A stretch of DNA of 63,753 bases from NCBI GenBank assembly GCA_947629255.1, contig CANRDF010000003.1, positions 1-63,753 on the forward strand, given 5' to 3'. A model generated the notes under the pieces. It was not told the DNA's origin. It did not search any database and saw only the letters and a program-made list of their open reading frames with translations. Each line of letters begins with the position of its first letter. The first letter of the stretch is position 1. Below are positions 1,394 through 54,034 of the stretch, piece after piece. The DNA is from an uncultured Bacilli bacterium. GTDB taxonomy: Bacteria > Bacillota_I > Bacilli_A > RF39 > UBA660. Made by a program: the position numbers and the translations under genes.

Positions 1394-1405
1394 AGTTTCC
1401 TCTTT

Positions 1406-2542: not shown

Positions 2543-2552
2543 TTCCTTTCAT

Positions 2553-8495: not shown

Positions 8496-8512
8496 AACAG
8501 CTTCCTCCTTCT

Positions 8513-9200: not shown

Positions 9201-9209
9201 TTAAGTCAC

Positions 9210-9512
9210 CTACAATTCTATTTTTTGAGATTGATATTCTGAATCAAGCTTATTATATAAAGAAACAGCATTCTGAATATAATCTGCAATTTCTTGTAGC
9301 TCTGAAGCCATAAGTTCAATACTATGAACATAAGAATCGTTTTCTACTAAAAGAGTAGAAACAAAATGAGTATAGCTTTCTCCTTGCCAAGAAGAGGCTA
9401 AAGACCGTGTAATATTAGAAAGACTTTTACAAACATCTTTCATATTATCTGATTGTTTGGAAATCATTGCACTTAACTCTAAAAGTTTTTCCTCATCTAC
9501 TTTGATATTCAT
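9210..9512 (-). CDS. WXG100-like small helical protein (100 aa)
   Basis: It is 100 aa long with a central 'SWQGESY' W-x-G motif and lies in a T7SS context. Confidence 0.7.
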   Translation of the reverse strand: MNIKVDEEKLLELSAMISKQSDNMKDVCKSLSNITRSLASSWQGESYTHFVSTLLVENDSYVHSIELMASELQEIADYIQNAVSLYNKLDSEYQSQKIEL

Positions 9513-9544
9513 ATTCGACTCTCCTATTTAAAGATATCACTAAG

Positions 9545-9805
9545 TTAAAAGAAAATCAACCTTTTCCCATTTTTTAAGCCAGACTCTTTCACTGATACTT
9601 CTGGATCATAAAAAATATTTTGTTCACAATCATATAACGCATTTTGAAGGTCTAAAGGAAACACATCATTACTTATTTCATGAATAGAACGAGCAATCAT
9701 ACAAATAACATCTACAATTTTTTTGTTTGGTGGTAAAAATACTTCAAATTCTTGATCTAACTTAATAACATAAATGGAAACAAAAATTTTATTCATTTTC
9801 TTCAC
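9545..9805 (-). CDS. esaB: EsaB/YukD-like ubiquitin-fold T7SS protein
   Basis: It is 86 aa long and overlaps the essC stop by 17 nt. Size and position match EsaB/YukD. The sequence call itself is weak. Confidence 0.55.
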   Translation of the reverse strand: MKKMNKIFVSIYVIKLDQEFEVFLPPNKKIVDVICMIARSIHEISNDVFPLDLQNALYDCEQNIFYDPEVSVKESGLKNGKRLIFF

Positions 9806-14351: not shown

Positions 14352-14413
14352 CTAACCCACTTCCTTTATTCTTAAAAAGAATTATAGCATAAAAAAAGAA
14401 GAAAGAAAAGAAA

Positions 14414-14436
14414 AAATAACCTTTGAAAGGTTATCT
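14414..14436. repeat. target-site duplication, left copy (AAATAACCTTTGAAAGGTTATCT)
   Basis: An identical 23-mer recurs at 16104..16126, immediately outside the IS inverted repeats. The 23-mer itself contains the hairpin ATAACCTTT/AAAGGTTAT. Confidence 0.85.
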
Positions 14437-15944
14437 CAGATTGTTGACAAAAGCGGTATATTCAAAAAGAGTATATCTCTTTTTTTCATATTTTGAAAAA
14501 AAATTGTTAATTTTGAAAAAATCAGTGAAATAATGGCCTTTTTTGGATGACTTTTCCATCTCCAATTTGCCATTTTCTTTAAATTATGACATGCAAAAAT
14601 CATCGTGGAATTCTGTTCATTTTTGAGTAATCCACGAACTCTAGTAAATCGAAGACCATGTTGTTCCTTACAATCTCCAAATGTTCTTTCGATTGTTTCT
14701 TTTCGTAAAGGATAATTTTCTTTCCAAAGTTTGGTGTATCTCATTTCATTGGCTTGTTCTTTATACTCTTCCCATATATGTCGAGTGACTACTTTTTGAC
14801 AGTTTTTACTTTTGGTACATCGTTCTCTGAATGGACAATCTTTACATTTCTCTGGATCTGATTTATATTGCTTATATCCTTTTTTATCTGTTGTTGTATA
14901 CGTTAATATTTCATTATTTGGACAAATATAACAATCGTAATATTCATCATATACATATTCATTTTTTTTAAATAAGCCTTTTCCTGTCATTGGTCTTTTA
15001 TATGGCATTAAGGGAATGTGACCTGACAAAATGATTTCTCTACATATCGCTGGATTGATATATCCTGCATCTAAACAAACATTTTTTATTTGATCTTTAT
15101 ATTTCTGATTTAAAAGATGATATGCTTTAAAAAATGCTACACTGTCATGTATGTTTCCTGCTGTTGTCGTTTTTGCTAATACAAATCCATTTTTATCACA
15201 AAACGTTTGATGAGTATAAGCAAAACATTTTTCTTTTTCTCCTTTATGATAACATCCACTTTCTGGATCAGTTATACTTTCTTTAATGTGTTTTGTTTCT
15301 ATGTTTTCAATCACTTCTCCTGTTTCTTCATCAAACATGATTTCTGTCTTTTCTATATTTTTAAGTGGCTTTTTCCCATTCTTTTCTCTATCTTCATTGA
15401 TTTCTTTTAACATGGCATCTTCATATACTTTTTTTACGATTTCTACTTCTACATCTTTGTGTTTATTCTTATTTGCATTTGCTTTTTGATGTGTTCCATC
15501 TCCGAATACGGTTTCCATATCTATAAATCCATATTCCATCGCTTGATTTAAAATCTTATCAAATATTTCATTAAACACATCACTGTCTTTATATCTTCTT
15601 ATATAATTTTGACTCCATGTTGAATAATTTGGAATATCATCATATATTGATAATCCTAAAAACCATCGATAAGCTATATTTACCTTACATTCTTCACATG
15701 TTCTTCTCATGGAATTGATTCCAAATATAATATTTATAAAGATGAGCTTAAATAGTACGACTGGTGGAACACTTGGTCTTCCTCCTATACTGTATAAATC
15801 TTTTACTAGATCTTCTATAAATCTAAAATCCATACAGTGATCTAATTTCCTTACTAAATGCTCCTTGGGTACTAATTCTTCTATCGTACTTAATATTATA
15901 CAATCATTTTTATGTATTTGTTTGGTCATTGCCATTTGCTTCAA
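14436..15944 (-). CDS. DDE transposase (IS1182-like, InsH-type N-terminus)
   Basis: 'LVPKEHLVRKLD', 'GRPSVPPVVLFKL..YRWFLGL', a Cys-rich 'CKDCPFRERC' and the C-terminal 'ERTFGDCKEQHGLRFTRVRGL..NLKKMA'. The last base of the TGA stop comes from the flanking target DNA. Confidence 0.85.
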   Translation of the reverse strand: MKQMAMTKQIHKNDCIILSTIEELVPKEHLVRKLDHCMDFRFIEDLVKDLYSIGGRPSVPPVVLFKLIFINIIFGINSMRRTCEECKVNIAYRWFLGLSIYDDIPNYSTWSQNYIRRYKDSDVFNEIFDKILNQAMEYGFIDMETVFGDGTHQKANANKNKHKDVEVEIVKKVYEDAMLKEINEDREKNGKKPLKNIEKTEIMFDEETGEVIENIETKHIKESITDPESGCYHKGEKEKCFAYTHQTFCDKNGFVLAKTTTAGNIHDSVAFFKAYHLLNQKYKDQIKNVCLDAGYINPAICREIILSGHIPLMPYKRPMTGKGLFKKNEYVYDEYYDCYICPNNEILTYTTTDKKGYKQYKSDPEKCKDCPFRERCTKSKNCQKVVTRHIWEEYKEQANEMRYTKLWKENYPLRKETIERTFGDCKEQHGLRFTRVRGLLKNEQNSTMIFACHNLKKMANWRWKSHPKKAIISLIFSKLTIFFQNMKKRDILFLNIPLLSTI

Positions 15945-16103
15945 CTCCTATTCTAACCATCCTTATTATCTCATATTTGCATGAAAAAAGCGAGATTTTG
16001 CAATGACTTTTTTGGTTAAAATAGGAGTCATTTTTCTCGCCAATTTCATTATAATACTTTTTTTCATAAAAAAAAGACTATTGACCTTTTTGTCAACAGC
16101 CTG
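14437..16103 (-). mobile_element. IS1182/IS5-superfamily insertion sequence
   Basis: The terminal inverted repeats are CAGATTGTTGACAAAAG (left) and CAGGCTGTTGACAAAAAG (right, reverse complement). The element has a single transposase ORF and is flanked by a 23-bp direct repeat. Confidence 0.85.
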
Positions 16104-16126
16104 AAATAACCTTTGAAAGGTTATCT
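16104..16126. repeat. target-site duplication, right copy
   Basis: Identical to 14414..14436. It overlaps the stop codon of the tandem-WXG gene by 1 nt. Confidence 0.85.
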
Positions 16127-16788
16127 TAAGCTCCTCTATCTGCACTTTGAGCTGCCATAGCAGCAGCATTAATGTTGCTAATACAAATATCTAAATTACT
16201 ATATATTTTTGTCATATTCGTATCAGCAGTATTTGTTAAAGTATTTTTAGCAGATTCTGCTGCATCACCATCCCAAATACCTTCCCCACTATTTAACCGA
16301 TTAATAGTAGTTAATAAATTTACTTTAACTCCATCTAATTTTTCTTTGATTTGTTTCAAAGAAGTACCAATGTTACTGATAACTTCATAATCATAAGTAA
16401 CAATTTCCTTATTAATGTTTTCAGCAGCCATTTGACTTAATTGATTAAAACTCAATTCTCCAAAAGATTGAGATACATTGGTATCAAAACCCAAATTAGA
16501 AACTTCTAGCCCAGCTACACTTTTTGCTACTTCATTCATAGTTTGAGCAAAAGCATCTCCAAACTCATTAGAAAAAGCAACTAAAGCATTATGAGTTTCC
16601 ATAAAATTTTGATAGTTTTGATATGCAGCTGCTCCAGTCCAAACTTGAGGTTTAACAAGTTCTGACACTAATTCATTAAATTTTCTAACACAACTTGCAA
16701 CACTATCTTCTTCCCCACTAATAATTTTGATTAAACTATTAGACCAATTTTTTACTGAATCAGGATTGTAAACAAAAGCCATACTCAT
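16126..16788 (-). CDS. tandem (fused) WXG100-family protein, EsxA-like, 220 aa
   Basis: Two W-x-G hairpin motifs occur in one chain: 'VWTGAAAY' (aa ~49) and 'IWDGDAAE' (aa ~163). The C-terminal 'YSNLD' fits the YxxxD/E pattern. Confidence 0.75.
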   Translation of the reverse strand: MSMAFVYNPDSVKNWSNSLIKIISGEEDSVASCVRKFNELVSELVKPQVWTGAAAYQNYQNFMETHNALVAFSNEFGDAFAQTMNEVAKSVAGLEVSNLGFDTNVSQSFGELSFNQLSQMAAENINKEIVTYDYEVISNIGTSLKQIKEKLDGVKVNLLTTINRLNSGEGIWDGDAAESAKNTLTNTADTNMTKIYSNLDICISNINAAAMAAQSADRGA

Positions 16789-16891: not shown

Positions 16892-18445
16892 TTATTTCTT
16901 TAAAGCTTTAATTTCTTCTAATTTCTTTGGAATATCAATTCTTTGAAATAATGGACTTGGTTCAGCAACCTCGTAAACTAAATCTTCTCTAAAAGTCGAA
17001 TCTTTTTCAGTTGTTCCCAGTTGTCTTAAAATTTCTACACTTGTATCAGGTAAGAAAGGTGCAATTTCTAAAGCACTCATCCGAATAACTTCTAACAAAT
17101 GATACATTACGGTTTCAAGTCGGTTTCTATTTTCTTCTTCTTTTGCTAAAGCCCAAGGCATCGTATCATCAATATATTTATTGCATTTTCTTAACATTTC
17201 AAAAATCTCATCTAAAGCAGAACCGATTTCCAAACGTTCCATCTTTTCATCCACTCTTTGGGATAAACTTTGAGCTGATTTAAGTAAATCATCATCTAAA
17301 CTTTCTAAATCTTTTGTATATTTAACAGTTCCATCAAAATACTTCCGAACCATAGAAATTGTTCGATTGACTAAATTTCCTAAAACATTCGCTAAATCAC
17401 TATTGATACGTTCCATAATAAGTTCATAGGTAATCGTTCCATCATTTTGAAAAGGAATTTCATGTAATACATAATAACGAATCGCATCTACCCCAAAAAG
17501 TTCAACCAAATCATCCGCATACATAATATTACCTTTGCTCTTACTCATTTTATCTGTCCCAAATAAAAGCCAAGGATGACCAAAAACCTGCTTAGGAAGT
17601 TCCACACCTAAAGCCATCAAAATAATAGGCCAATAAATCGTATGAAAACGAATAATATCTTTTCCAATCAAATGTAAGTCACAAGGCCACCATTTCTTAA
17701 ACTCCTCGTTCCCACCATCCACATCATAACCAATATTGGTAATATAATTAGATAAAGCATCAATCCAAACATAAACAACATGTTTATCATTAAAAGGAAC
17801 TTTAACTCCCCAATCAAAAGTTGTACGAGAAACACACAAATCCTGTAAACCAGGCTCTAAGAAATTATGAATCATTTCATTCTTACGAGATTCTGGTTGA
17901 ATAAAAGAAGGATGACTTTCAATATAATCAATGAGTTGTTTTTGATATTTAGAAAGCTTAAAGAAATAAGCTTCCTCACTTCTTTTCTCTACTTCTCTAC
18001 CACAATCAGGACACTTTCCATCAACAAGTTGAGTCTCTGTCCAAAAAGATTCACAAGGAGTACAATAAAGTCCTTCATATTGTCCTAAATAAATATCACC
18101 TTGCTGATATAACTTTTCAAAAATCCGACCAACAACTTCCTTATGATGAGCATCTGTAGTTCTAACAAATTTATCATAACTAGTATTCATAATATCCCAA
18201 ATTCTTTTTATTTCCCGGGAAATATTATCTACGTACTCTTGAGGTTCTAGTCCCGCTTCTCTTGCTTTTAACTCAATCTTCTCTCCATGTTCATCTGTTC
18301 CAGTTTGAAAATAAACATCATATCCACGACTTCTTTTATACCTTGCAATCGCATCTGCAAGAACAATCTCATAAGTATTTCCTATATGAGGTTTAGAAGA
18401 AGCATAAGCGATAGCTGTTGTAATGTAATATTTTTCTTTTTCCAT
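16892..18445 (-). CDS. metG: methionine--tRNA ligase
   Basis: 'AYASSKPHIGN' (HIGH), 'KMSKSKGN' (KMSKS) and the CPxC..CPDC zinc knuckle. I trimmed the start to MEKEKYY (Met27), because the longer ORF runs into the T-box leader. Confidence 0.95.
   Translation of the reverse strand: MEKEKYYITTAIAYASSKPHIGNTYEIVLADAIARYKRSRGYDVYFQTGTDEHGEKIELKAREAGLEPQEYVDNISREIKRIWDIMNTSYDKFVRTTDAHHKEVVGRIFEKLYQQGDIYLGQYEGLYCTPCESFWTETQLVDGKCPDCGREVEKRSEEAYFFKLSKYQKQLIDYIESHPSFIQPESRKNEMIHNFLEPGLQDLCVSRTTFDWGVKVPFNDKHVVYVWIDALSNYITNIGYDVDGGNEEFKKWWPCDLHLIGKDIIRFHTIYWPIILMALGVELPKQVFGHPWLLFGTDKMSKSKGNIMYADDLVELFGVDAIRYYVLHEIPFQNDGTITYELIMERINSDLANVLGNLVNRTISMVRKYFDGTVKYTKDLESLDDDLLKSAQSLSQRVDEKMERLEIGSALDEIFEMLRKCNKYIDDTMPWALAKEEENRNRLETVMYHLLEVIRMSALEIAPFLPDTSVEILRQLGTTEKDSTFREDLVYEVAEPSPLFQRIDIPKKLEEIKALKK
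18210..18223. promoter_or_regulatory. perfect Noc-binding-site (NBS) palindrome ATTTCCCGGGAAAT
   Basis: Exact 14/14 match to the B. subtilis NBS consensus. It lies inside the metG CDS. Confidence 0.6.
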
Positions 18446-18686: not shown

Positions 18687-19214
18687 CTAAAGAATGTCAA
18701 TTTTATTTCCAATAATTTTAATAAAAAATTGAACAAAATTCTTCATATAAGATAAAAATGGTTGGTCACTTACCAAAACAACAAATCCAATCACATCACT
18801 AGAAACCAAAATAGGCGCGACAAAAAAATACCCATTAAGCTCTACATCTTCAAAAAAAGACTCCATTACCATTGATTCATAAGTCGTTCTTTCATCTAAC
18901 AACTTTGCGAATTTATCATTGAGTTCATGATTTAAAATTGCATCGATACTAGACGCCAATACTCTTTCTCTATCGGTAACAAAAATATTCAAGTTCATCT
19001 CCGTATGAGCAAGTTCACAAAGTCTTGCCACTAAATCATGAAATACAAGTAATCTCGAATGTTTTTGTAAATAAATACCTTGGTTATCAACAAATATTTC
19101 TAAATCTTCACCATCTTTAATTCCTAAAGACCTTCGTATCTCTTTTGGCAAAACAATTCGCCCAAGTTCATCAATTTTACGTATAATACCTGTTTCTTTC
19201 ACAAAAAATTCCAC
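18687..19214 (-). CDS. spoVT: AbrB/SpoVT-family regulator (stage V sporulation protein T-like)
   Basis: The N-terminal 'GIIRKIDELGRIVLPKEIRRSLGI..GEDLEIF' is a SpoVT/AbrB swapped-hairpin domain, followed by a GAF-like C-terminus. It is 175 aa and sits downstream of mfd, as in Bacillus. Confidence 0.8.
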   Translation of the reverse strand: MEFFVKETGIIRKIDELGRIVLPKEIRRSLGIKDGEDLEIFVDNQGIYLQKHSRLLVFHDLVARLCELAHTEMNLNIFVTDRERVLASSIDAILNHELNDKFAKLLDERTTYESMVMESFFEDVELNGYFFVAPILVSSDVIGFVVLVSDQPFLSYMKNFVQFFIKIIGNKIDIL

Positions 19215-23043: not shown

Positions 23044-23757
23044 TTAACTCCTTTCAAAAATTCCTTGATAACTTGATAAACCCTGTATAACCTTAGGTGC
23101 ATAGACTTTTGTTCCAAACTTTGCATCTTTAACTAGAGTCATTAGAACAATAATAGGTTTAGACTCAATTTTAGAATGAACAAATTGAACCTCTTTTACA
23201 CCAAAACCATATTTATGAGCATACACAATAATTTCATCAAGCCTATCAGGTACATGCACTAAATAAAATTTTCCTCTTGACTTTAATAGAAAACTCGCTA
23301 TCTCTATTAAATCTTCAAGTTTGAGTAACACTTCATGTCTCGCGACTCTTTTTAAGACATTATCATTCACAATGCTACTTTCTGTCGTCTTAAAATACGG
23401 TGGATTACACAAAATGACATCAAAATTATTTCCCGGGAAATAATTTTTTAACTCCATCACATCTTTATGAAGGATTTGAATGTCTTCAGACATGTGATTT
23501 ACAAGCACCGAATCGCAAGCTAACTCATAAATTTCCTCCTGAACTTCAACTCCTATCACTTTTTTATGATACTTTTGATGAAGAACAATCGGAATTACTC
23601 CATTTCCCGTGCACAAATCCAAAATTTTATTATCACTCGCTTTAATATCAGCGAATTCAGCAAGTAAAATAGAATCTAAAGAAAATTTAAAGCCTTCTTC
23701 ATACTGATACACTTGTAAATCTGGATAATCAAACAACCAATTAAGCGACTTTTTCAT
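23044..23757 (-). CDS. SAM-dependent methyltransferase, YabB/TrmN6-like (tRNA m6A37 type)
   Basis: 'ILDLCTGNGVIP' is a SAM motif I and 'CNPPYF' is an NPPY catalytic motif. The position matches B. subtilis yabB. Confidence 0.75.
   Translation of the reverse strand: MKKSLNWLFDYPDLQVYQYEEGFKFSLDSILLAEFADIKASDNKILDLCTGNGVIPIVLHQKYHKKVIGVEVQEEIYELACDSVLVNHMSEDIQILHKDVMELKNYFPGNNFDVILCNPPYFKTTESSIVNDNVLKRVARHEVLLKLEDLIEIASFLLKSRGKFYLVHVPDRLDEIIVYAHKYGFGVKEVQFVHSKIESKPIIVLMTLVKDAKFGTKVYAPKVIQGLSSYQGIFERS
23428..23441. promoter_or_regulatory. perfect Noc-binding-site (NBS) palindrome ATTTCCCGGGAAAT
   Basis: Exact 14/14 match, inside the methyltransferase CDS. Confidence 0.6.
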
Positions 23758-26226: not shown

Positions 26227-26523
26227 TTACATCAAACCATCTAACATGCCAGCATATTGTCCCATTTTACTCTGAAATTCTTTGTCAACCTTTGCTAAAG
26301 CATCCTTTGTAGCAAGAACAATAAAATCTTCCAACATTTCAATATCTTCAGCAGCTAAAGATTCTTTTTGAATTTGACATTTCACCATTTCTTTCTTCCC
26401 ATTTAACGTCACTTCTACAAATTCATATTTCCCGGGAAATAATTGAGCATTAATTTCATCCTTCTTTTTTTGAATGTCTCTTTGCATTTTTTGAGCTTGA
26501 GCCATTATACTTTGCATATTCAT
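26227..26523 (-). CDS. ybaB: YbaB/EbfC nucleoid-associated protein
   Basis: It is 98 aa, starts 'MQSIMAQAQKMQRDIQKKK', and sits in the conserved dnaX-ybaB-recR order. Confidence 0.9.
   Translation of the reverse strand: MNMQSIMAQAQKMQRDIQKKKDEINAQLFPGKYEFVEVTLNGKKEMVKCQIQKESLAAEDIEMLEDFIVLATKDALAKVDKEFQSKMGQYAGMLDGLM
26427..26440. promoter_or_regulatory. perfect Noc-binding-site (NBS) palindrome ATTTCCCGGGAAAT
   Basis: Exact 14/14 match, inside the ybaB CDS. Confidence 0.6.
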
Positions 26524-28200: not shown

Positions 28201-28626
28201 CTATCTTTTTGATTTAAAAAACTCAGATAGCATTTTACTATACAATTGTACGCTTTTACTGTTATTTTTATCACTTAAACTCACATACTTGGTCTTATCA
28301 TACTCTTTTTTATAGTCTAATTTATCTAAAAGATAGTAAACATTTGCAATTCGAGCTTGTTGAATCACCGTTTTACACATAGAACAAGGTTCCAAAGTCA
28401 CATATAAATCACAATCTGCTAAATTCCAACGTTTTAGACGCTTTTCTGCCTCCAAAATAGCCTCAATTTCAGCATGTCCCGTAATTTTATGTTCTTTTTC
28501 ACGAATATTATGTGCATAACTAATAATTTTGTCATTTTGAACAATGACCGCTCCAATCGGAACATCCCCTTGTTCATAAGCTTTTTGAGCTTCTTCAATA
28601 CAAATTTCAAAATATTGTCCCATCAT
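28201..28626 (-). CDS. tadA: tRNA-specific adenosine deaminase
   Basis: The 'HAEIEA' and 'LEPCSMC' CDA zinc motifs. I trimmed the start to the MMGQYF region, behind a GGTAGGTGA RBS. Confidence 0.9.
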   Translation of the reverse strand: MMGQYFEICIEEAQKAYEQGDVPIGAVIVQNDKIISYAHNIREKEHKITGHAEIEAILEAEKRLKRWNLADCDLYVTLEPCSMCKTVIQQARIANVYYLLDKLDYKKEYDKTKYVSLSDKNNSKSVQLYSKMLSEFFKSKR

Positions 28627-28645
28627 ATCACCTACCATAAAAAAA

Positions 28646-28716
28646 GTGCACACAAACAGGGAATGACGTGGCTGCTATCTTCCGATCCTGACCAGATTAC
28701 ATTATATTTGTTGCAC
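28646..28716 (-). ncRNA. ffs: small (4.5S-type) signal recognition particle RNA
   Basis: The minus strand reads 'CUGGUCAGGAUCGGAAGAUAGCAGCC', matching the SRP RNA domain IV core (GGUCAGGNCCGGAAGGNAGCAGCC with a GGAA tetraloop). The closing helix is GUGCAACAAA/UUUGUGUGCAC, followed by a U7 run. The ends are approximate. Confidence 0.7.
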
Positions 28717-28762
28717 GTATTAATAATAACAAAAGTGCTAAAAAAATGCAATAATTTTTCTA

Positions 28763-28778
28763 TGTTCCACGTGGAACT
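28763..28778. promoter_or_regulatory. parS-like site 1
   Basis: TGTTCCACGTGGAACT (15/16). Confidence 0.7.
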
Positions 28779-28827
28779 ATCATATTTAAATATATATACA
28801 AATGTTCGTTTCATTATAAAATTTTAA

Positions 28828-28843
28828 TGTTCCACGTGGAACA
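28828..28843. promoter_or_regulatory. parS-like site 2
   Basis: TGTTCCACGTGGAACA. A perfect 24-bp palindrome spans 28824..28847. Confidence 0.85.
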
Positions 28844-28946
28844 TTAACTTTAATATTACAAAATAATTAAATTTTTCTTAGTCTTTCAATTTAGTTCACT
28901 ATTTTTGGAAGTTATAAAAAGTTTTTAAATTTTTTTTTGAATTATA

Positions 28947-28962
28947 TGTTTCACGTGAAACA
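28947..28962. promoter_or_regulatory. parS-like site 3
   Basis: TGTTTCACGTGAAACA. A perfect 24-bp palindrome spans 28943..28966. Confidence 0.85.
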
Positions 28963-29107
28963 TATACTTATAATCCAAACATTTTTGATACTTTTTTAAA
29001 TTATTAAGATATGTAGTTTCTATTATAACAAAATTTACAATTTATTACATATAATACGTATAAATTGTAATATTCCAATTATTTTAAATTAATACTGTTT
29101 ATTTCAA

Positions 29108-29123
29108 TGTTTCACGTGGAACA
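29108..29123. promoter_or_regulatory. parS-like site 4
   Basis: TGTTTCACGTGGAACA, with mixed half-sites. Confidence 0.85.
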
Positions 29124-29169
29124 TTCAGTTATTCACAATCACAAAAAGCAAGTTAAAAAAACATGCAAA

Positions 29170-29185
29170 TGTTTCACGAGAAACA
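29170..29185. promoter_or_regulatory. parS-like site 5 (degenerate core)
   Basis: TGTTTCACGAGAAACA, with CACGAG instead of CACGTG. The flanks extend the palindrome to 29166..29189. Confidence 0.6.
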
Positions 29186-29273
29186 TTTGTTATTCACTAA
29201 AAAAATACACCAATTAATAATATTTTAATAAAATATACATTAATTTGATTAAAAAATAATTCTTATTACAATA

Positions 29274-29289
29274 TGTTCCACGTGGAACA
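29274..29289. promoter_or_regulatory. parS-like site 6
   Basis: TGTTCCACGTGGAACA. Confidence 0.85.
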
Positions 29290-29438
29290 TTAGTTATAAA
29301 CATTTTTAAATTTATAAAACATAAAAATATTCTTTATTATAAATTCAATTTGCATTAATTTAAAATTATTCCTTTTAAAATTTAATATACTATAAATTTT
29401 ACTAATTTAAATATTAAAATTTATTATTAACTAATCAA

Positions 29439-29454
29439 TGTTCCACGTGGAACA
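29439..29454. promoter_or_regulatory. parS-like site 7
   Basis: TGTTCCACGTGGAACA. Confidence 0.85.
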
Positions 29455-29505
29455 TTCTGTAACGTTTTAAAGAATATAAATTAATTCCTACAAATATTCA
29501 ACTTA

Positions 29506-29521
29506 TGTTTCACGTGAAACA
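29506..29521. promoter_or_regulatory. parS-like site 8
   Basis: TGTTTCACGTGAAACA. A 22-bp palindrome spans 29503..29524. Confidence 0.85.
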
Positions 29522-29644
29522 TAAAATTGGACTAATGCTCATAACTTTTAAAATACTAAATCAATTTAATTATATATATTAAAAAATTAACTTATATCCA
29601 ATGCATAACTCAATATCAATAAAAATTTAAACCTTATCAAAAGA

Positions 29645-29660
29645 TGTTCCACGTGAAACA
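29645..29660. promoter_or_regulatory. parS-like site 9
   Basis: TGTTCCACGTGAAACA, identical to the B. subtilis consensus. The palindromic flanks span 29637..29668. Confidence 0.85.
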
Positions 29661-29758
29661 TCTTTTGAAATTTAAACTCAAAACTAATTTTTAACATATG
29701 CAGCAAATAACACTATCATTACAGATTTAATATGTTAATAATTTTTATTCATTTCTAA

Positions 29759-29774
29759 TGTTCCACGTGGAACA
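29759..29774. promoter_or_regulatory. parS-like site 10
   Basis: TGTTCCACGTGGAACA. A perfect 30-bp palindrome spans 29752..29781. Confidence 0.85.
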
Positions 29775-29848
29775 TTAGAAAATAAATGTGCATAACTAGT
29801 TTTAATGAACATTTGTTCGAACAAATAGTATAAAAAAAGAAACTAGCT

Positions 29849-32329
29849 TTATTTCTCACTAGTTTCTTCATTATTAATAGTTTCAGTATCTTCTAATACC
29901 TCAGAAATCTCTTCTTTTTCTTCATGTTCCACAATGCTTATCGTTGATACACTTTGATTATCCTTTAAGTGGATAAGTCGAACACCCTGTGTAACTCTAC
30001 CCAAAGTAGAAACTTGTTCCAAAGGTAAGCGAATCAACATACCTGTATTCGTAATAATAACAACATCTGAATTTTCCTCTACAATTTTAAACGATGCAAT
30101 AGAACCATTCTTTTCAGTAATATTAAGGGCTTTTACACCTTTGCTTCCTCTAGAAGTTTGTCGATAATCAGAAACGATTGTTTGTTTTCCATAACCCTTC
30201 TCAGTGACTATCAATATCTTATCCTCATCTTTGGCAACCTCAGCACCAATACAAGTATTATCTTCACCTAAATTAATGCCTCGAACACCACTTGCCGTTC
30301 TACCCATAACTCTTAAAGCATCCTCAGTAAACTTAACCATCCTGCCTGAACTAGAGCCCAGTAAAACTAAATCATTTCCAGTAGTCTTCCGAACACTAAT
30401 AAGTTCATCTGTTTCACGAAGTGTAATACAAATCTTACCATTTGTACGAATATTATCAAACTCAGAAATAGCTGTTTTCTTAACAATACCTTTCTTAGTC
30501 GCGAATAACAAGTATTTATAGGTATCATCCTCTGGACTAATACGAATTAACGAATTAATAGACTCATCTTTATCAATTTGAAGTAAGTTGATAACTGGTA
30601 TTCCTTTAGATTGCCTACTAAACTCTGGAATTTCATAGCCCTTTAAACGATAAACCTTACCTTTATTTGTAAAGAATAATACATAATCATGTGTGGATAA
30701 GTTAAGTAAATGTTCCACAAAATCTTCTTCATTCGTTGCCATACCCTTAACACCAACACCACCACGATTCTGTGATTTAAACGTATCACTTGTCGTTCTC
30801 TTAATATAGCCTTTATTCGTTAAAGCAATCATAATATTTTCTTCAGGAATCAAAGACTCATCTTCAATATACTCAATCGCAGTCATATCAATATGAGTAC
30901 GACGTTCATCAGCATATTTATCTTTAATTTCAAGAAGTTCAGAACGAATAATTGCCAAAACTTTTTCTTCACTTGCTAATATTGCCTTATATTCCTCAAT
31001 TTTTTGTAACAAATCAGCAAGTTCTTCTTCAATTTTCTCTTTCTCTAAACCAGTTAAACGACGAAGTCTCATTTCCAAAATTGCATTTGCTTGAATCTCA
31101 TCTAATCCAAACTTAGACATCAATCCATCTCGTGCATCATCATCCGTTCTACTACCACGAATAACCTTAATAACCTCATCAATATGATCAAGAGCAATCT
31201 TCAAACCCTCTAAAATATGAACTCTATCTTGAGCCTTCTTTAAATCAAATTGAGTTCTACGAATAATAACTTCCTTTTGAAAATCAATATATTTACTAAT
31301 GATGTCACGTAACCCCAAAGTTTTAGGGACACCCTGGTCTATCATCAATAAAATGATACCATAAGTCGTTTGAAAAGCCGTATGTTTATACAAATTATTG
31401 AGTACAACTTGAGGATTAGCATCTTTCTTCAAAGTAATCGTAATCTTAATACCATCTTTCAAATCAGAATGATAATCAGCAATTCCATCAATAATTTTAT
31501 TGTGAACCAACTCAGCAACCTTATTTTTCAGCTCTAAAGTATTCACTCCATAAGGAACTTCATCAAAAATAATCGAATATTTTCCATTTTTCTCTTCAAT
31601 ACTTGCCTTTGAACGAATCGTAATCGTTCCTCGCCCTGTTTCATAAGCCTTACGAATACCAGAATTTCCTAAAATAATCGCACCTGTTGGAAAATCAGGT
31701 CCCTTAATATGTTGCATTAATCCATCTGTATCAATATTTGGATTATCAATATATGCAACACACCCATCAATCACTTCTCCTAAATTATGAGGCGGAATAT
31801 TTGTCGCCATACCAACCGCAATACCCATTGTACCATTAACCAAAATATTCGGAAATCTACTAGGTAAAACAGTAGGTTCTTCTTCCAACTCATCAAAATT
31901 TGGAGTCATATTCACAGTATCTTTATTTAAATCACGAAGAAGTTCATTGGTAATCTTAGCCATACGTGCTTCTGTATAACGCATTGCAGCCGCGCCATCA
32001 CCATCCATATTACCAAAGTTACCATGCCCATCAACAAGAGGATAACGGAAACTAAAATCTTGAGCCATACGAACCAATGCATCATAAATAGAAGAATCGC
32101 CATGTGGGTGAAATTTACCCATAACATCACCGACAATACGTGCACATTTCTTATGTTGTTTATCAAAGGTATAGCCAGATTGATACATCGAAAACAAAAT
32201 ACGACGATGAACAGGCTTTAATCCATCTCTTAAATCAGGCAAAGCACGTGAGGTAATAACACTCATTGAATAATCAATAAATGAATCCTTTATCTCTTGA
32301 ACAATATTATTTTTTTCAATCTTATCCAT
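29849..32329 (-). CDS. gyrA: DNA gyrase subunit A
   Basis: '[26 protein letters not shown]', the active-site 'AAAMRYTE' and C-terminal beta-pinwheel repeats. Confidence 0.97.
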
Positions 32330-35424: not shown

Positions 35425-35904
35425 TTATAACATATTATTTTCCATTTTAAAACGATTTTTTACATTTTTTCGTACTCTCAAAGCACTTTCCAAACGTGTA
35501 GAACGAAGAACTTGATTATCCAAAACACCATAGGAAGAAGATAGTATTAAACTCTTGTTATTTTTAAATAAAATTTCCACTCCCCCATACCCTCTTCGGT
35601 ATTCCAAAATATGATTTAAACTTATCCACACCGTATCTTGTTTTCGAATAGATGTCATTGGAAAAAAGATCATTTCATTTGACTCTTCCACAATGATAGG
35701 AGCCTTATATTTTACTCCAATAATTTCTTCTGTCCCTTTTTTTCTTCCTTCCAAACTACTTCCATAATAACGACAACTATGTTCAATAATATTAGTTGTT
35801 GAATCACGTACTAAAAAGTCCCCATGAACTTCGTACACTTGAGTAATGTTATCTTCAATAGGAATTAAAGCAAGTGTATCAATATTAATTTCATATTCTT
35901 TCAT
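35425..35904 (-). CDS. comK: ComK-family competence transcription factor
   Basis: 'IIEHSCRYYGSSLEGRKKGTEEI..YKAPIIVEESNEMIFFPMTS..VWISLNHI' aligns with B. subtilis ComK 'IVDRSCRFFGSSYAGRKAGT..HKPPIMVDPSNQIFLFPTLS..GWISHVHV'. Confidence 0.8.
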   Translation of the reverse strand: MKEYEINIDTLALIPIEDNITQVYEVHGDFLVRDSTTNIIEHSCRYYGSSLEGRKKGTEEIIGVKYKAPIIVEESNEMIFFPMTSIRKQDTVWISLNHILEYRRGYGGVEILFKNNKSLILSSSYGVLDNQVLRSTRLESALRVRKNVKNRFKMENNML

Positions 35905-37198: not shown

Positions 37199-37347
37199 TT
37201 TTTTTTCCTTCTTTCTTTTTATATTTATATATTCATATTATTAATACGGTGGATAACGTGGATAACTTTTACAACTACCCATGATACCGTACTCTTTTGT
37301 CGAATTTTGTCGTGGATAACTTTCCACATCTTTAAAGATTATTCACA
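37199..37347. other. oriC sub-region (dnaA-dnaN intergenic, incC-like): DnaA boxes plus an AT-rich unwinding candidate
   Basis: Reverse-orientation DnaA boxes are GGTGGATAA (37248..37256), CGTGGATAA (37257..37265) and CGTGGATAA (37311..37319), each 8/9. Forward 8/9 boxes are CTTTCCACA (37320..37328) and TTATTCACA (37339..37347). The tandem boxes abut an AT-rich tract at 37199..37247. Confidence 0.8.
37298..37314 (+). promoter_or_regulatory. tandem Spo0A-box pair (TGTCGAA-N3-TGTCGTG) inside oriC, overlapping a DnaA box
   Basis: It reads TGTCGAATTTTGTCGTG. The second box overlaps the DnaA box at 37311..37319. Confidence 0.5.
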
Positions 37348-38778
37348 TTACATCTTATTTTGTATCTCTTTAATCTCCCCTTCCAATGCTTTATTCGTCT
37401 TTAAATCTTGGGTAATTTTATCATAAGCGTGGATAACTGTTGAATGATCTCTTCCACCAAACTCAAACCCAATCCGATTTAAGTTTTCTTCGGTGAGAAC
37501 TCTTGATAAATACATCGCGATTTGTCTAGGATAAGCTACTTTTACGTTCCGTCTCTTCCCTTTCAAATCATTTACTGTAATATGGTAGTATTCTGCCACC
37601 GCATTTTGAATTCCCTCAATACTATTCGTCTTATAAATGTTACTATTTCCATAATCTCCCAAAGCTTCTACTGCAAAGTTAAAATCTATTTTATCAGGAA
37701 CCATCATAGAAGTATAAAACATCAGTCGATTCAAAGCACCTTCTAAGTATCGAACATCATTTTGAAAAGTATTTGCAATATACTCAATCACACTTTCCTC
37801 AATCTTTGCTGAAATACTCATGTTTTTAAGTTTTGCTTTAATAATGTTACATCGAAGTTCAAAGTCTGGTGGATAAATATCCACAGTAAGTCCCCATTGA
37901 AACCGACTGGTAAGTCTTTCTTCTAGTAATTTCAAATCATTCGGGCTTCTATCAGAACTAATAATGATCTGTTTATTTGCTTGATGTAAAGTATTAAAGG
38001 TATGGAAAAATTCTCCCTGTGTCTTTTCAGCACCAATTAACAACTGGATATCATCAATAATAAGAACATCAATGTCTCGATATTTTCTTTTAAAATCAGA
38101 GGCAACTTGAAAATTATTTCCTCCACTATTGGATATATTAATATAATCATCTTTAAACATTTCACTTGTTGTATAAAGTACCTTTTTCTTAGAATTTTTA
38201 ACAATATAGTTTCCTATCGCATGCATCAAATGTGTTTTTCCAAGTCCACTTTTCCCATAGATAAATAACGGGTTATGCACTTCTCCAGGATGCTCTGCCA
38301 CGATCATCGCGGCCATTTTCGCAAGCCGGTTGGAATCACCTACAACATAGTTATCAAAATTCAAATTTTCAATTAAGTTTGTATCCCAAGGTTCATCATT
38401 TTTAGAAGTAACTTCTTCTTTAGGAACAAAAAGTTGTTCACTTTTATCAAAGTTATCCACATTATCCACATTATCCACATTTTGTATTTGGGGTAATTCT
38501 TCTTCTTTTGGTTGAACATTTAATGCACTAAGTTCTTCTTTTAATAAGAATTCAAATTCATAGTTACGACTTGTTACCTTATAAAAAGCATTGTCAATTA
38601 AATCATAATAATTTGTACTTAATATTTTTTTATGTATTTCTAAAGGAACCTGTATATAGACTTTCGTATCCTCAATTTTCACAAGAACTAAATCGTGAAA
38701 CCAAGCATTAAAGGATGCAGAATTAACTTCTGGAATAATCTCATCTAAAACAGATTGCCATAGAGTCTTTTCATCCAT
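37348..38778 (-). CDS. dnaA: chromosomal replication initiator protein DnaA
   Basis: 'NPLFIYGKSGLGKTHL' (Walker A), 'LIIDDIQ', 'SDRSP' and the C-terminal 'YPRQIAMYL..GGRDHSTVIHA' DNA-binding domain. Confidence 0.97.
   Translation of the reverse strand: MDEKTLWQSVLDEIIPEVNSASFNAWFHDLVLVKIEDTKVYIQVPLEIHKKILSTNYYDLIDNAFYKVTSRNYEFEFLLKEELSALNVQPKEEELPQIQNVDNVDNVDNFDKSEQLFVPKEEVTSKNDEPWDTNLIENLNFDNYVVGDSNRLAKMAAMIVAEHPGEVHNPLFIYGKSGLGKTHLMHAIGNYIVKNSKKKVLYTTSEMFKDDYINISNSGGNNFQVASDFKRKYRDIDVLIIDDIQLLIGAEKTQGEFFHTFNTLHQANKQIIISSDRSPNDLKLLEERLTSRFQWGLTVDIYPPDFELRCNIIKAKLKNMSISAKIEESVIEYIANTFQNDVRYLEGALNRLMFYTSMMVPDKIDFNFAVEALGDYGNSNIYKTNSIEGIQNAVAEYYHITVNDLKGKRRNVKVAYPRQIAMYLSRVLTEENLNRIGFEFGGRDHSTVIHAYDKITQDLKTNKALEGEIKEIQNKM
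38453..38479 (+). repeat. three head-to-tail perfect DnaA boxes (TTATCCACA x3) inside the dnaA coding sequence
   Basis: TTATCCACATTATCCACATTATCCACA encodes (N-V-D)x3 of the domain II linker on the minus strand. Confidence 0.9.
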
Positions 38779-39090
38779 TTAACCACCCCGCTTCACTTCA
38801 TTCAAACTACCAATTTCATTGTACACTTTTTTTAATCACTTGAAAAGTATAAAATTTATATTAACACGTTATCCACAAGTTATCAACAGAAAAACACTAT
38901 ATAATATCGAACTTTCTAGCACTTATCCACATTATCAACATTTTTTAATTCACAGTAATGTGAACAAGTGTGTAAATGTTTATAAAAGTTATCCACACTG
39001 TGTTTATAAGTTGATAAAATAAAAGATATTAATATAAATACAGAATAAAAAAGCATAAAAAAATGTGAATAAGAATTCACATAAAAGATA
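38779..39090. other. oriC sub-region upstream of dnaA (incAB-like DnaA-box cluster and dnaA promoter)
   Basis: Perfect TTATCCACA boxes lie at 38869, 38923 and 38989. TTATCAACA (8/9) lies at 38880 and 38932, and TGTGAATAA (8/9, reverse) at 39064. An AT-rich tract spans 39001..39060. Confidence 0.85.
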
Positions 39091-39095
39091 AGTTA

Positions 39096-39314
39096 TTAAC
39101 TTTGTTGAAGTTCTTTTATTACTTCAATAGATAAACCAGTTACCTTAGATATATATGAAATATCAGATTTCTTCAACATAGCTTTTGCAATCTCCTCACT
39201 TTTGTCATCTTTTCCTTCCCCATAGGCAATCACTCGTTCTATATCCACAGATGCCCACTTTTTTGCGACCCTCTTTGCTTGTTTTAAATCTTTTTTGTTT
39301 GCTGCAAATATCAT
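39096..39314 (-). CDS. stand-alone homologue of the Rpn-nuclease C-terminal domain (72 aa)
   Basis: 'MIFAANKKDLKQAKR..ERVIAYGEGKD..EEIAKAMLKK..ISKVTGLSIEVIKELQQS' is collinear with the last ~75 aa of the upstream 281-aa protein ('MILAANAEDFRQARK..ERVIAFGEGKD..EEIAKALLKK..ISEVTGFSIENIEELKNS'). It has its own RBS. Confidence 0.65.
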   Translation of the reverse strand: MIFAANKKDLKQAKRVAKKWASVDIERVIAYGEGKDDKSEEIAKAMLKKSDISYISKVTGLSIEVIKELQQS

Positions 39315-39353: not shown

Positions 39354-40199
39354 TTAGCTGTTTTTAAGTTCTTCAATATTTTCAATAGAAAAACCTGTCA
39401 CTTCAGAAATTGTATTAAAATCTAGCTCAGTCTTTTTTAACAAAGCTTTTGCAATTTCTTCAGCCATAGCATCTTTTCCTTCACCAAAAGCAATAACTCT
39501 TTCCTTTTCCTCAGAGGTCCATCTTTTGGCTTTCCTAGCCTGTCTAAAATCTTCAGCATTCGCGGCTAATATCATCAAATCTTCATCCTCTCTAGCAATT
39601 TGCCTCATTTTCTTTAGAGATTTCTCACCAATCATTTGTAAATGTCTTAATAGCAAATCATTTTCACCATCATTGTATCCCATTTCTTTTGCTTTGTCAA
39701 CATTTAAGATATAGAGTTCGATATTACTAGGTAATTCTTTATATTCAGGACCTTCTCCCTTAAAATTATATTTCTGAAACCAACGATTTGGTAAGTTTAA
39801 GTTTTTACTTACTTTCCCTGCTATAATAATACCTATTACCTTCTTACCTTCAGTATACTTTTGCTTTTCTTGTAACTGTTCTGCATCAGTACTAGATAAA
39901 TAAGATAATTCCTTCTTTAAACTTTCTAGATTTAAAGTAGTTTGAGCTTCTATATTAATAATATAATGAGGAGTATAGATAATAATATCTCCCCTTTTCT
40001 CTTTCGTAGATAATTTTTTCTTTTGAAAAATATACTCAATTTGAATCATAATCTCTTCCAAATATTCCTCTTCATGAATATATTGAAAGAAACCTTTTAA
40101 AAAAGATAACATAACTCTTTTATCACGATACAGATGTTTAAACATGTCATCAAATAAAATCTTCTTTTTTCCATAACTCTTAGATGCCAAAGAAATCAC
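39354..40199 (-). CDS. Rpn-family (YhgA-like, PD-(D/E)XK) recombination-promoting nuclease / putative transposase
   Basis: 'FDDMFKHLY', a 'GDIIIY..IINIEAQT' PD-(D/E)XK-like core, and a C-terminal helical tail typical of the family. It uses a GTG start. Confidence 0.65.
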   Translation of the reverse strand: MISLASKSYGKKKILFDDMFKHLYRDKRVMLSFLKGFFQYIHEEEYLEEIMIQIEYIFQKKKLSTKEKRGDIIIYTPHYIINIEAQTTLNLESLKKELSYLSSTDAEQLQEKQKYTEGKKVIGIIIAGKVSKNLNLPNRWFQKYNFKGEGPEYKELPSNIELYILNVDKAKEMGYNDGENDLLLRHLQMIGEKSLKKMRQIAREDEDLMILAANAEDFRQARKAKRWTSEEKERVIAFGEGKDAMAEEIAKALLKKTELDFNTISEVTGFSIENIEELKNS

Positions 40200-40320: not shown

Positions 40321-41565
40321 CTATAAAATTTGTTGTAAATGATAAGGATGATCGAAACTTCCATCTTGGCTATCATTTACGATTTTAACATTTGATTTTA
40401 AATATATAGTAGGTCGTACATCAGCTTTTTGTATAATAGGGTTATAACCGATATCTCCATCAGAAATGATACCATATGCTCCATCATAAAATGTCCCATA
40501 AGGCGATAAAGTCCATTGATATTGCGGAATACCCAAATCATCTTTATAAAATAACCAATCATCCTTATAACAATCTTTGCTAAAATAAATTAATTCTTTT
40601 TCTAAACAATGATTCCTATTTATCCCTCCTACAGCATATCCATAATCGCTGGGATACATGAGACCAATCGAATGAAAGTTAGAGGTATTTTGCCCCCATT
40701 CATAAGGTTGATTATTATAAGCATAATTTTCTCTTTCCTTTTCATACCATTGATTTACAAATGAACTTTGATAATCATTCCAAATAATGCCACCTATATT
40801 CCAAATAATATTTTCATCTATCATACTTTTTGCATCATCTTTTAATTGATTATAATATTCAGTATTTAGATAAGACTGAAGAGATGATTTTGTCCAGTCA
40901 TTTTGATTATTACTATCCCAAGCACGATCCCCATCGTTATTATTTTTAATAATTTTTAATCTCTGTTCTACTACTTTACTTTCTATTTTAACATTAACTA
41001 AACCAATAATACGCCATAGTTCTTCATTAAACAACACATAATTTTTGGAATTTATTCCTGCAAAACGAAATTCAGTTTGACTAAAACCATCGTTATCAGT
41101 TGTATCTATTACTTTATCATGAGGCACTTCATAAAGTCCGTCATCACTTTTCACAATTGGTATCCCCTTACCTTGAATAAACTTACCTTTCACAAAATAT
41201 AAATTACATTTTGTTCTTGATGTAGTCACACCATGAACTTGAATTACATAATCTTCCGTTAATGTAACTTTGATATTATCATCATGACTTCCATTTACCC
41301 CACAGAAACTATTTTCTTCGTCTAACACATATTCACTCTCTTTTTTTGGCATATCCTTTTGTATCTCATTATCTACAAAAAATGCAAAATAGATATTTCC
41401 AGGGTCTTGAACTTCTCCTTTAATCACATTTTGATTTGTCCTCACTTCAAATATGGCAAATGTTCGATACAAAATCACTCCACTTACTAACAAAATACAT
41501 GTTATAGTGAATATTATAACTCCTAATCTTTTATTATCTCTTTCTTTAAATTTCTTTAATTTCAT
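40321..41565 (-). CDS. signal-anchored extracellular protein, paralogue (N-terminal ~130 aa) of 58065..59960
   Basis: 'MKLKKFKERDNKRLGVIIFTITCILLVSGVILYRTFAIFEVRTNQNVIKGEVQ' is near-identical to the N-terminus of the 631-aa protein. The C-terminal domain contains 'WRIIGLVN' and 'W..SSLQSYLNTEYYNQL'. Confidence 0.7.
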   Translation of the reverse strand: MKLKKFKERDNKRLGVIIFTITCILLVSGVILYRTFAIFEVRTNQNVIKGEVQDPGNIYFAFFVDNEIQKDMPKKESEYVLDEENSFCGVNGSHDDNIKVTLTEDYVIQVHGVTTSRTKCNLYFVKGKFIQGKGIPIVKSDDGLYEVPHDKVIDTTDNDGFSQTEFRFAGINSKNYVLFNEELWRIIGLVNVKIESKVVEQRLKIIKNNNDGDRAWDSNNQNDWTKSSLQSYLNTEYYNQLKDDAKSMIDENIIWNIGGIIWNDYQSSFVNQWYEKERENYAYNNQPYEWGQNTSNFHSIGLMYPSDYGYAVGGINRNHCLEKELIYFSKDCYKDDWLFYKDDLGIPQYQWTLSPYGTFYDGAYGIISDGDIGYNPIIQKADVRPTIYLKSNVKIVNDSQDGSFDHPYHLQQIL

Positions 41566-48908: not shown

Positions 48909-49085
48909 ATGTTAAAAGACAAAACTGCACTATTTATTTTGTTATTATTACTTATTGGGTTTCTTCCTTTAATAGGAGTACATGCCGCTTCAAGAATTAT
49001 TAACGGTGAGGATAATTTACAAGATATAAGTATAACAGAAAAGATTGTAGAAAGTAATAATGAAACACAAAAAAAAATAGTTTAG
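48909..49085 (+). CDS. small secreted peptide candidate (58 aa, not in the ORF track)
   Basis: It has an AAAGGAG RBS 8 nt upstream. 'MLKDKTALFILLLLLIGFLPLIGVHAAS' looks like a signal peptide with an AxA-type cleavage site, followed by a hydrophilic 30-aa tail. Confidence 0.4.
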   Translation: MLKDKTALFILLLLLIGFLPLIGVHAASRIINGEDNLQDISITEKIVESNNETQKKIV

Positions 49086-53969: not shown

Positions 53970-54034
53970 GTTATCCTCCATTTCTAAATCTTGCATTTTT
54001 AGCAAGATTAGTTCGTTATTATACACGGAAGGGT

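Follow-up and report, generated by a model that had tools for sequence, protein, structure and literature searches.

A dense non-coding array of parS sites between gyrA and the SRP RNA gene, the probable origin-proximal centromere of an uncultured Bacilli bacterium

Introduction

Why should a bacterium from within the Bacilli, a group whose model member scatters its parS sites, carry ten copies of this motif in a single kilobase of non-coding DNA? The question is raised by a 63,753-bp stretch of DNA from an uncultured Bacilli bacterium (contig CANRDF010000003.1 of GenBank assembly GCA_947629255.1), which is referred to below as the window. The ten sites lie between gyrA and the gene for the small RNA of the signal recognition particle (SRP), close to the replication origin oriC. 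We consider it likely that this block is the origin-proximal centromere of the chromosome, providing ten binding and loading sites for a ParB protein of the Spo0J type, each of them an 18-bp palindrome (ATGTTYCACGTGRAACAT). A prediction to this effect had been made from the sequence alone and is called the original prediction in the following.

Results and Discussion

Ten canonical parS sites in non-coding DNA

When searched for TGTTNCACGTGNAACA with two mismatches allowed, the window gave ten matches, all within positions 28763-29774 (Table 1), and none in the remainder of the 63,753 bp. This is a clear excess over chance, as dinucleotide-preserving shuffles of the window gave a mean of 0.15 matches and a maximum of 2. 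When the tolerance was raised to 3 mismatches, the additional matches in the window were scattered and all of them had three mismatches. The motif is a canonical parS, being identical to the optimal parS of Bacillus subtilis, TGTTCCACGTGAAACA (PMC8299390), and had been correctly recognized as such in the original prediction. The description of the individual sites given there was accurate in every detail: eight of the ten are exact, while the other two have one mismatch each, which is terminal in site 1 and located in the core of site 5 (CACGAG).

No intergenic region of the window is larger than the one in which the array resides (28654-29848, 1195 bp), and the longest open reading frame (ORF) in the array has only 39 amino acids. 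Its GC content is about 21%, and that of the spacers alone is 14.7%, which is below that of all other intergenic regions of at least 100 bp in the window (21-37% GC). The predicted setting, ten copies in 1012 bp of ORF-free, AT-rich DNA flanked by gyrA and by the SRP RNA and tadA genes, could thus be verified. Apart from the flanking SRP RNA, the array has no significant match to an Rfam family, sub-threshold chance matches excepted, and it contains no tRNA. DnaA boxes in the array amount to two copies with one mismatch each, which is the background level.

The distances between the starts of adjacent sites are irregular (65, 119, 161, 62, 104, 165, 67, 139 and 114 bp; range 62-165 bp). No tandem repeats were detected in the array by Tandem Repeats Finder, the spacers are mutually dissimilar, and the only repeat families consist of the parS sites together with a few AT-rich flanking bases. 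Because a tandem unit is lacking, the spacing is irregular and the repeats are confined to the sites, the array is not the product of a recent tandem amplification. A periodicity of 345, 331 and 320 bp over three sites is only apparent and has no sequence support.

Table 1 Features of the parS array and its surroundings. Positions refer to the window unless a related locus (L number) is given.
Feature	Position	Strand	Remarks
parS array, entire	28763-29774		10 sites, 1012 bp, non-coding
parS site 1	28763-28778		TGTTCCACGTGGAACT; one terminal mismatch (T for A at the end)
parS site 2	28828-28843		exact, aTGTTCCACGTGGAACAt
parS site 3	28947-28962		exact, aTGTTTCACGTGAAACAt
parS site 4	29108-29123		exact, aTGTTTCACGTGGAACAt
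parS site 5	29170-29185		TGTTTCACGAGAAACA; one core mismatch
parS site 6	29274-29289		exact
parS site 7	29439-29454		exact
parS site 8	29506-29521		exact
parS site 9	29645-29660		exact
parS site 10	29759-29774		exact; ~55 bp from the putative gyrA terminator
gyrA	29849-32329	-	upstream flank; gyrB-gyrA transcription runs toward the array
Intrinsic-terminator-like hairpin of gyrA	29830-29866	-	putative origin-side boundary of the array, read from the sequence
SRP RNA promoter-like element	28723-28751	-	putative far-side boundary of the array, read from the sequence
Small SRP RNA gene	28630-28727	-	RF00169, 57.4 bits
tadA	28201-28623		directly after the SRP RNA gene
oriC region	37199-39241		dnaA (37348-38778), DnaA-box clusters and dnaA-dnaN spacer
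ParB-family gene, Noc-type	49298-50575	+	425 amino acids, canonical noc slot after rsmG
Perfect Noc-binding site	18210-18223		ATTTCCCGGGAAAT; inside metG
Perfect Noc-binding site	23428-23441		inside a methyltransferase gene
Perfect Noc-binding site	26427-26440		inside ybaB
Interleaved Noc-binding and parS sites in relatives	L013:12500-12694; L042:13180-14830; L032, L022, L025, L028, L034, L043, L047

Location and boundaries of the array

The array is origin-proximal. On the minus strand, the gene order is dnaA, dnaN, comK, recF, gyrB, gyrA, array, SRP RNA, tadA, dnaX, ybaB and recR. Of six perfect DnaA boxes (TTATCCACA; 38453-38989), three (38453-38471) fall within the 5′ end of dnaA and the others lie upstream of the gene. 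The cumulative GC skew has its minimum and turning point at about 42 kb in the window. The array belongs to the leftward replichore; its centre is at a distance of 8-10 kb from oriC, and dnaA is 7.6-9 kb away.

The array appears to fill the whole gap between the terminator of gyrA and the promoter of the SRP RNA gene, as far as these can be assigned from the sequence. The terminator-like hairpin has the stems GAAACTAG and CTAGTTTC and a 12-nt loop containing the gyrA stop codon, followed by seven T on the minus strand. At the other end, the promoter-like element combines a -35-like hexamer (TTGCAT, 28746-28751), a 17-nt spacer and a -10-like hexamer (TATTAT, 28723-28728), with parS site 1 at a distance of only 11 bp from the -35-like hexamer.

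Conservation of the array in related species

Related loci were collected by a scan with the GyrA protein, with one genome taken per GTDB species. This resulted in 80 loci with 66-98% identical GyrA, nearly all from metagenome-assembled genomes (MAGs) of uncultured gut Bacilli (from rabbit, chicken, ruminants and humans), for which Traorella is the nearest cultured relative. The statistics on the interval from the gyrA stop codon to dnaX cover 79 of the 80 loci (L081 was left out), and parS sites were counted with at most one mismatch.

The comparison of the tadA-gyrA region with that of relatives bore out the original prediction. In the 79 species, 326 of the 334 parS sites are located in the gyrA-dnaX interval, although this accounts for only 94 kb out of a total of 1.35 Mb (a density of 3.5 sites per kb, versus 0.006 per kb outside, where 8 sites occur in 1.26 Mb). 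For 48 species the interval has been assembled through to dnaX; at least two sites are present in 44 of these and at least three in 39, with a median of 4 and a maximum of 12 sites per complete interval. Such arrays are found at this same locus in about 70 related species. The SRP RNA-tadA unit is present in every relative, with parS sites between gyrA and the SRP RNA gene, and some lineages have further sites between tadA and dnaX.

Sequence conservation extends by one base on either side of the 16-mer that was searched. The flanking bases, which lay outside the search pattern, are A in 97-99% and T in 91-97% of the cases (background about 45% and 40%), and therefore the functional unit is the 18-bp palindrome. 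Purifying selection acts on the sites only: the parS sites of the array are kept, while its spacers cannot be aligned even to those of species with 98% or 94% identical GyrA. In some relatives, the arrays are perfect satellites with units of 26, 28, 37-39 or 66 bp (such as the 39-bp tandem unit of L046 and the 66-bp unit of L013). Taken together, these sequence comparisons show that strong purifying selection maintains the sites as well as their location, while individual copies are rapidly gained and lost. The clade represents a natural experiment, in which one fixed locus has been equipped with anything from 0 to at least 12 sites and in which the architecture ranges from irregular arrays to perfect satellites of 26-66 bp, with turnover between near-identical species.

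Perfect palindromes that form tandem satellites in relatives could also be a selfish or structural repeat, either a hairpin satellite or an element resembling repetitive extragenic palindromes (REP) or miniature inverted-repeat transposable elements, or else the relic of a partition site from an integrated plasmid or phage. We find this hardly credible. The dispersal through intergenic regions that would be typical of a REP-like element, and that the original prediction had named as speaking against itself, was not found: all 27 other intergenic regions of the window are free of copies, and the eight sites mentioned above are all that occur in the flanking DNA of the relatives. A BLAST comparison to 72,556 plasmids and 50,697 phages revealed no similarity, no mobility gene adjoins the array, and its position is stable down to 66% GyrA identity. 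The statement that the block is neither a clustered regularly interspaced short palindromic repeat (CRISPR) locus nor an insertion sequence (IS) nor a coding feature therefore stands, and can be extended to REP-like elements and to plasmid or phage remnants.

Of the contigs from 79 relatives (L002-L080), 32 end in the array or just after it, 30 of them at most 1.2 kb from the gyrA stop codon. The arrays thus systematically break short-read metagenome assemblies, which matters for MAG completeness and for locating the origin in metagenomes. Such breaks might raise the suspicion that the array itself is an assembly artefact, either a collapsed or a chimeric repeat. The probability of this is negligible, as collapse of a repeat is impossible with the unique spacers of the window, as an identical array is present in a contig from a separate, independent assembly in the European Nucleotide Archive (ENA), and as assembly through to dnaX has succeeded in 48 species.

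In 22 of 44 related species, the distance between the end of the last parS and the 5′ end of the SRP RNA is only 26-43 bp, and in these a hexamer TTTACA, TTGACT or TTGCAT adjoins the last parS. ParB bound to the promoter-proximal parS may influence transcription of the SRP RNA gene (ffs), or the promoter may set the boundary of the array. A more radical proposal would be that the sites form an operator or silencer array, possibly with ParB as the repressor, which controls the SRP RNA/tadA promoter or insulates it from gyrA read-through and has no role in segregation. The abutment of the last parS on the -35 hexamer would fit to this, as would a simple terminator scan that marks some of the sites as a hairpin plus T-run. 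However, one or two sites would be enough for an operator, whereas the arrays comprise up to 12 sites, extend as far as 3 kb from the promoter and are also found between tadA and dnaX. Furthermore, the motif is the universal parS consensus and gyrA has a putative terminator of its own. We consider a purely regulatory array very unlikely; the promoter-proximal site could have a regulatory side-effect without contradicting a role as centromere.

With a non-coding cluster near oriC, a conserved position, and sites that are kept while spacers drift, the core of the original prediction, a dedicated chromosomal centromere, is probably right. The array is a real and selected locus, in all likelihood one for chromosome segregation.

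How a dense array might function

By analogy to parS sites that have been studied, ParB binding, loading of CTP (cytidine triphosphate) clamps and recruitment of SMC (structural maintenance of chromosomes) complexes would be expected at the array, and the one very large clamp-loading zone of the original prediction may form there. Each parS would catalyse closure of a ParB-CTP clamp, which then slides onto the flanking DNA. Ten sites within 1 kb would multiply the loading flux from one point, resulting in a single robust ParB nucleoprotein complex. With more parS sites, loading has been reported to be faster and the condensate to withstand force better (PMC8299390). As SMC-ScpAB is recruited by ParB at parS (PMC7333895), the array could represent a single SMC entry point and might avoid collisions between condensins that have been loaded far apart; with clustered strong parS sites, fewer Smc collisions have been described (bioRxiv 10.1101/2020.12.04.411900). 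It is tempting to speculate that the gyrA terminator and the strong SRP RNA promoter, which converge at the edges, bound the zone in which clamps slide freely. The array may evolve in a satellite-like manner, with sites being born by local duplication and kept by selection while the spacers decay freely.

There are also observations that weigh against a centromere of this kind. A single parS is enough in several model species (PMC7333895). Within the range of at least 85% GyrA identity, the copy number varies between species from 3 to at least 11, and therefore ten copies as such may be dispensable; the variability suggests that the benefit is dosage-like and does not depend on a fixed architecture. 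In a Rayleigh test, helical phasing of the spacings reached no significance at 10.5 or 11 bp (p 0.53 and 0.73) and was marginal at 10.0 bp (p about 0.01, uncorrected), which we treat as absent, so that neither phasing nor regular spacing points to a defined higher-order complex. Finally, the proteins expected to act on the array are not encoded nearby. Neither a Spo0J-type ParB (with R173/G201) nor a ParA was found in the window by Pfam analysis of 40 ORFs and by tblastn, that is within 29 kb to the left and 34 kb to the right of the array, and none was found within 10 kb of gyrA in the 80 related loci. A tblastn search of the window and the 80 loci with B. subtilis Soj and Spo0J, for which approximate query sequences were used, gave no match. 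On relative contigs of 98 and 112 kb, soj and spo0J are also missing beside the orthologues of the Noc-type gene described below; the relatives share the gene order rsmG-noc-PBP1A without a soj/spo0J pair. The absence of this pair from its canonical slot in the window had already been stated in the original prediction. All these searches were confined to the window and the related DNA that had been retrieved, and we infer that the array is read by a Spo0J-type ParB that is encoded outside this window.

An atypical Noc-type protein is encoded near the origin

One ParB-family gene, the only one in the window, escaped notice in the original prediction. It is located on the opposite side of oriC, after rnpA, yidC, jag, mnmE, mnmG and rsmG, but it is Noc-type. 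Among solved structures, the best matches of its product are the nucleoid occlusion proteins 7NG0 and 7NFU (197 bits, compared to 166 bits for B. subtilis Spo0J). It scores 285 bits with the NCBIfam model for Noc (TIGR04285) and 182 bits with a generic ParB model. Divergence in the C-terminal third of the protein keeps the score below the cut-off for Noc (315 bits).

Four positions (173, 179, 184 and 201 in Caulobacter ParB numbering), which are Q/K/K/R in Noc, determine the specificity for either parS or the Noc-binding site (NBS), two sequences that differ at two positions per half-site (PMC7383237). On the scaffold of Caulobacter ParB, parS-specific variants retain an invariable Arg173, while Gln173 and Arg201 specify NBS (PMC7383237). 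According to our alignments, the window protein has Q-K-N-R at these positions, and thus both switching residues plus one permissive Lys, and these residues are kept in all 11 orthologues that were inspected. From these residues, it is predicted to be a Noc-type reader of NBS and not of parS.

The protein is nevertheless not a textbook Noc. A ribosome-binding site precedes its ORF, which starts 4 residues ahead of the conserved IPNRFQPR block, and the N-terminal amphipathic membrane-targeting helix is absent from the window protein and from the 11 orthologue sequences inspected (the N-termini of Noc from B. subtilis and Geobacillus are MKHSFSRFFGLGEKE and MKHPFSRLFSFGEKE, respectively). Orthologue P0096 has an N-terminal extension of 17 residues, which is unlike the Noc helix and looks like a mis-called start. 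The window protein carries an acidic linker of about 200 amino acids with conserved motifs, including an FF-containing one (KFFNFLEDE). A conserved motif in this linker, IPNKFFNFLEDEAA, is similar to the SFSRFFGLGEKE helix at the N-terminus of B. subtilis Noc, which gives the impression that this helix had been transposed. The C-terminal domain (TAINEIRD...YQMTINI) is presumably Noc-like, as judged from the B. subtilis sequence.

Three perfect NBS are present in the window (Table 1) compared to 0.25 expected, which is consistent with a live Noc system. All three are on the replichore of the array. An NBS at a distance of 83 bp from the start of ybaB is also found in four relatives (L004, L005, L006 and L041).

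Noc-binding sites within the parS arrays of relatives

In 26 of the 48 complete intervals, a perfect NBS (TATTTCCCGGGAAATA) occurs inside the parS array (examples are listed in Table 1). The density of NBS is 28-fold higher in the gyrA-dnaX interval than outside (0.87 versus 0.031 per kb). Seen from a parS, an NBS usually lies toward gyrA at a distance of 22-70 bp, most often 27-28 bp. The 66-bp tandem unit of L013 consists of one NBS and one parS, and L018 (12587-12815) has 71-bp repeats that carry only NBS. If this co-clustering is functional, it would represent a role of Noc at the centromere that has been shown by no model organism. These composite arrays, together with the atypical Noc paralogue, are the most novel lead to emerge from this analysis.

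Over all loci, 280 pure parS and 102 pure NBS were counted, no site or half-site combined the two signatures, and the two classes differ in their flank preferences. The occurrence of discrete classes with differing flanks fits to two distinct readers, the parS-specific reader being separate from the Noc-type protein. As a caveat, hybrids would be rare anyway, since they would have to arise through non-functional intermediates. The species of the window's own genus (those with at least 85% identical GyrA) have pure parS arrays, and the 11 characterised Noc-type orthologues belong to this genus.

One may imagine that the gap between gyrA and the SRP RNA gene is a fast-evolving, satellite-like centromere that recruits two ParB-family CTP clamps, a Spo0J-type ParB at parS and a re-purposed Noc paralogue at NBS. 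Noc would then have been drawn into segregation or anchoring of the origin, with soj-spo0J gone from the origin region, and the genus of the window would represent the pure-parS state. We regard this as a possibility only, and a rather doubtful one.

An even stronger version would have Spo0J wholly absent and would make the Noc-type protein the centromere protein, as a single reader that binds both to NBS and to the parS array. It would fit to the finding that, here and in relatives, no other ParB-family gene is seen in the 64 kb around oriC, and it would take up the missing membrane-targeting helix, the long novel linker and the physical interleaving of NBS and parS in many relatives. Dual-specificity variants have indeed been obtained in mutational scans (PMC7383237). 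However, the Q-K-N-R residues of the protein speak against this, as Gln173 and Arg201 specify NBS in the Caulobacter ParB scaffold and Arg173 is invariable in parS-specific variants (PMC7383237). All 11 inspected orthologues have Q-K-N-R in spite of the pure parS arrays of their own genus, the flank signatures of parS and NBS differ, and none of 386 sites is a hybrid. We thus consider a single reader unlikely and retain a Spo0J-type ParB as the expected partner of the array.

Comparison with known parS systems

One of the closest known systems is the parS/Spo0J system of B. subtilis, which has the same 16-bp palindrome in origin-proximal position, belongs to the same class Bacilli and has the same presumed function (ParB-CTP loading and SMC entry). 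In B. subtilis, however, the approximately ten sites are spread out, with the main ones distributed over about 60 kb (at -68, -63, -49 and -9 kb) and others far away, and such scattered sites have been described as typical of, or peculiar to, the Bacilli (bioRxiv 10.1101/2020.12.04.411900). Here, all ten are located in 1 kb of non-coding DNA, with no soj-spo0J operon nearby.

That parS sites on chromosomes are few and dispersed, as had been assumed in the original prediction, does not hold in general. In Myxococcus xanthus, a stretch of about 3 kb contains 22 parS sites, with 2 more flanking it; the cluster lies about 4 kb upstream of the parAB operon, and ParB bound the 3.1-kb parS fragment in an electrophoretic mobility shift assay (PMC3899335). 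Both chromosomes thus have a dense array of consensus parS sites near the origin (about 7 sites per kb in Myxococcus and 10 per kb here). At least ten consensus sites within a few kb near oriC, which characterize the Myxococcus type, are present in the window (ten in 1.0 kb), but the cluster is not located beside parAB. While Myxococcus has an essential ParABS system with parAB near the cluster, none is found nearby here; the array also differs in belonging to a genome with 30% GC, in occupying the gap between gyrA and ffs, and in its very quick turnover between species. According to reviews, up to 20-23 parS sites occur near the origin in Streptomyces and Listeria (PMC7333895). In twelve gut bacteria analysed by Hi-C, 1-10 parS sites were found, mostly clustered (PMC10197239). 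A broad literature search turned up no relevant survey of parS density.

We also scanned metagenomes for two exact parS sites 36-66 bp apart, which gave at least 120 loci (L082-L201) with 26-74% GC. Most of these are doublets or triplets, with at most three sites per 1.5 kb in 106 of the 120 loci listed, and a parA homologue is present within 600 bp in 52 of them. Such doublets and triplets upstream of parA-parB, which are common in metagenomes, share the motif with the array of the window and are likewise closely spaced (36-66 bp apart), but they usually have only 2-3 sites. The gyrA/tadA context of the clade studied here was found for six of the matches listed, and among these matches only one unrelated contig equals or exceeds the density of our array. 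In this contig (L145, 35% GC), a non-coding stretch of about 1 kb (1044-2030) contains 15 perfect parS sites (WTGTTTCACGTGAAACAW); it is located roughly 1 kb upstream of dnaA. Non-coding parS arrays of high density are thus rare but recurrent and have published precedent. The uniqueness of the array was overstated in the original prediction; it is unusually dense but of a kind that is already known.

The centromere of the F plasmid, sopC, consists of 12 repeats of 43 bp. Such iterated plasmid centromeres also have many ParB sites in a short non-coding stretch, and the regular 26-66-bp units in relatives are reminiscent of them. The array of the window, however, cannot be called plasmid-style. 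Its spacing is irregular (62-165 bp), it has no repeat unit, its motif is the chromosomal consensus, and it is not adjacent to parAB. In addition, it shows no similarity to plasmids or phages and is embedded in the chromosomal context dnaA-dnaN-comK-recF-gyrB-gyrA.

The Noc/NBS system of Bacillota is represented by the paralogue after rsmG, with Q, K and R at three of the four specificity positions, and by the three perfect NBS in the window. In contrast to this system, the sites of the array are of the parS type (G1/A6), the protein lacks the N-terminal helix and scores below the NCBIfam cut-off for Noc, and the NBS of relatives are concentrated in the centromere array instead of being scattered around the chromosome.

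Other features of the origin region

A comK homologue (35425-35904) is located between dnaN and recF, and homologues with 28-38% identity occupy the same slot in L093 and L140. In Bacillus, we take this slot to be filled by genes of the yaaA/remB type. Two genes of a PD-(D/E)XK "transposase" family flank the origin region (39354-40199 and 53124-54026). The first of these, together with a DUF6273 gene (40321-41565), separates dnaA from rpmH/rnpA; both are missing at this position in relative L204. The gap of 611 bp between rsmG and the Noc-type gene contains an ORF of 58 amino acids (48909-49085) with a signal-peptide-like N-terminus.

Sporulation genes (spoVT-like, spoIIR and bofA) were found in the window (18687-19214 and 61205-61711) and in a relative (L001:12051-12239), and the lineage may thus form endospores. 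A type VII secretion-like cluster (809-16788) codes for WXG100 proteins, a DUF4176 protein, an ADP-ribosylglycohydrolase and two large proteins of 1980 and 1520 amino acids. This cluster is interrupted by an IS with a DDE transposase (14436-15944).

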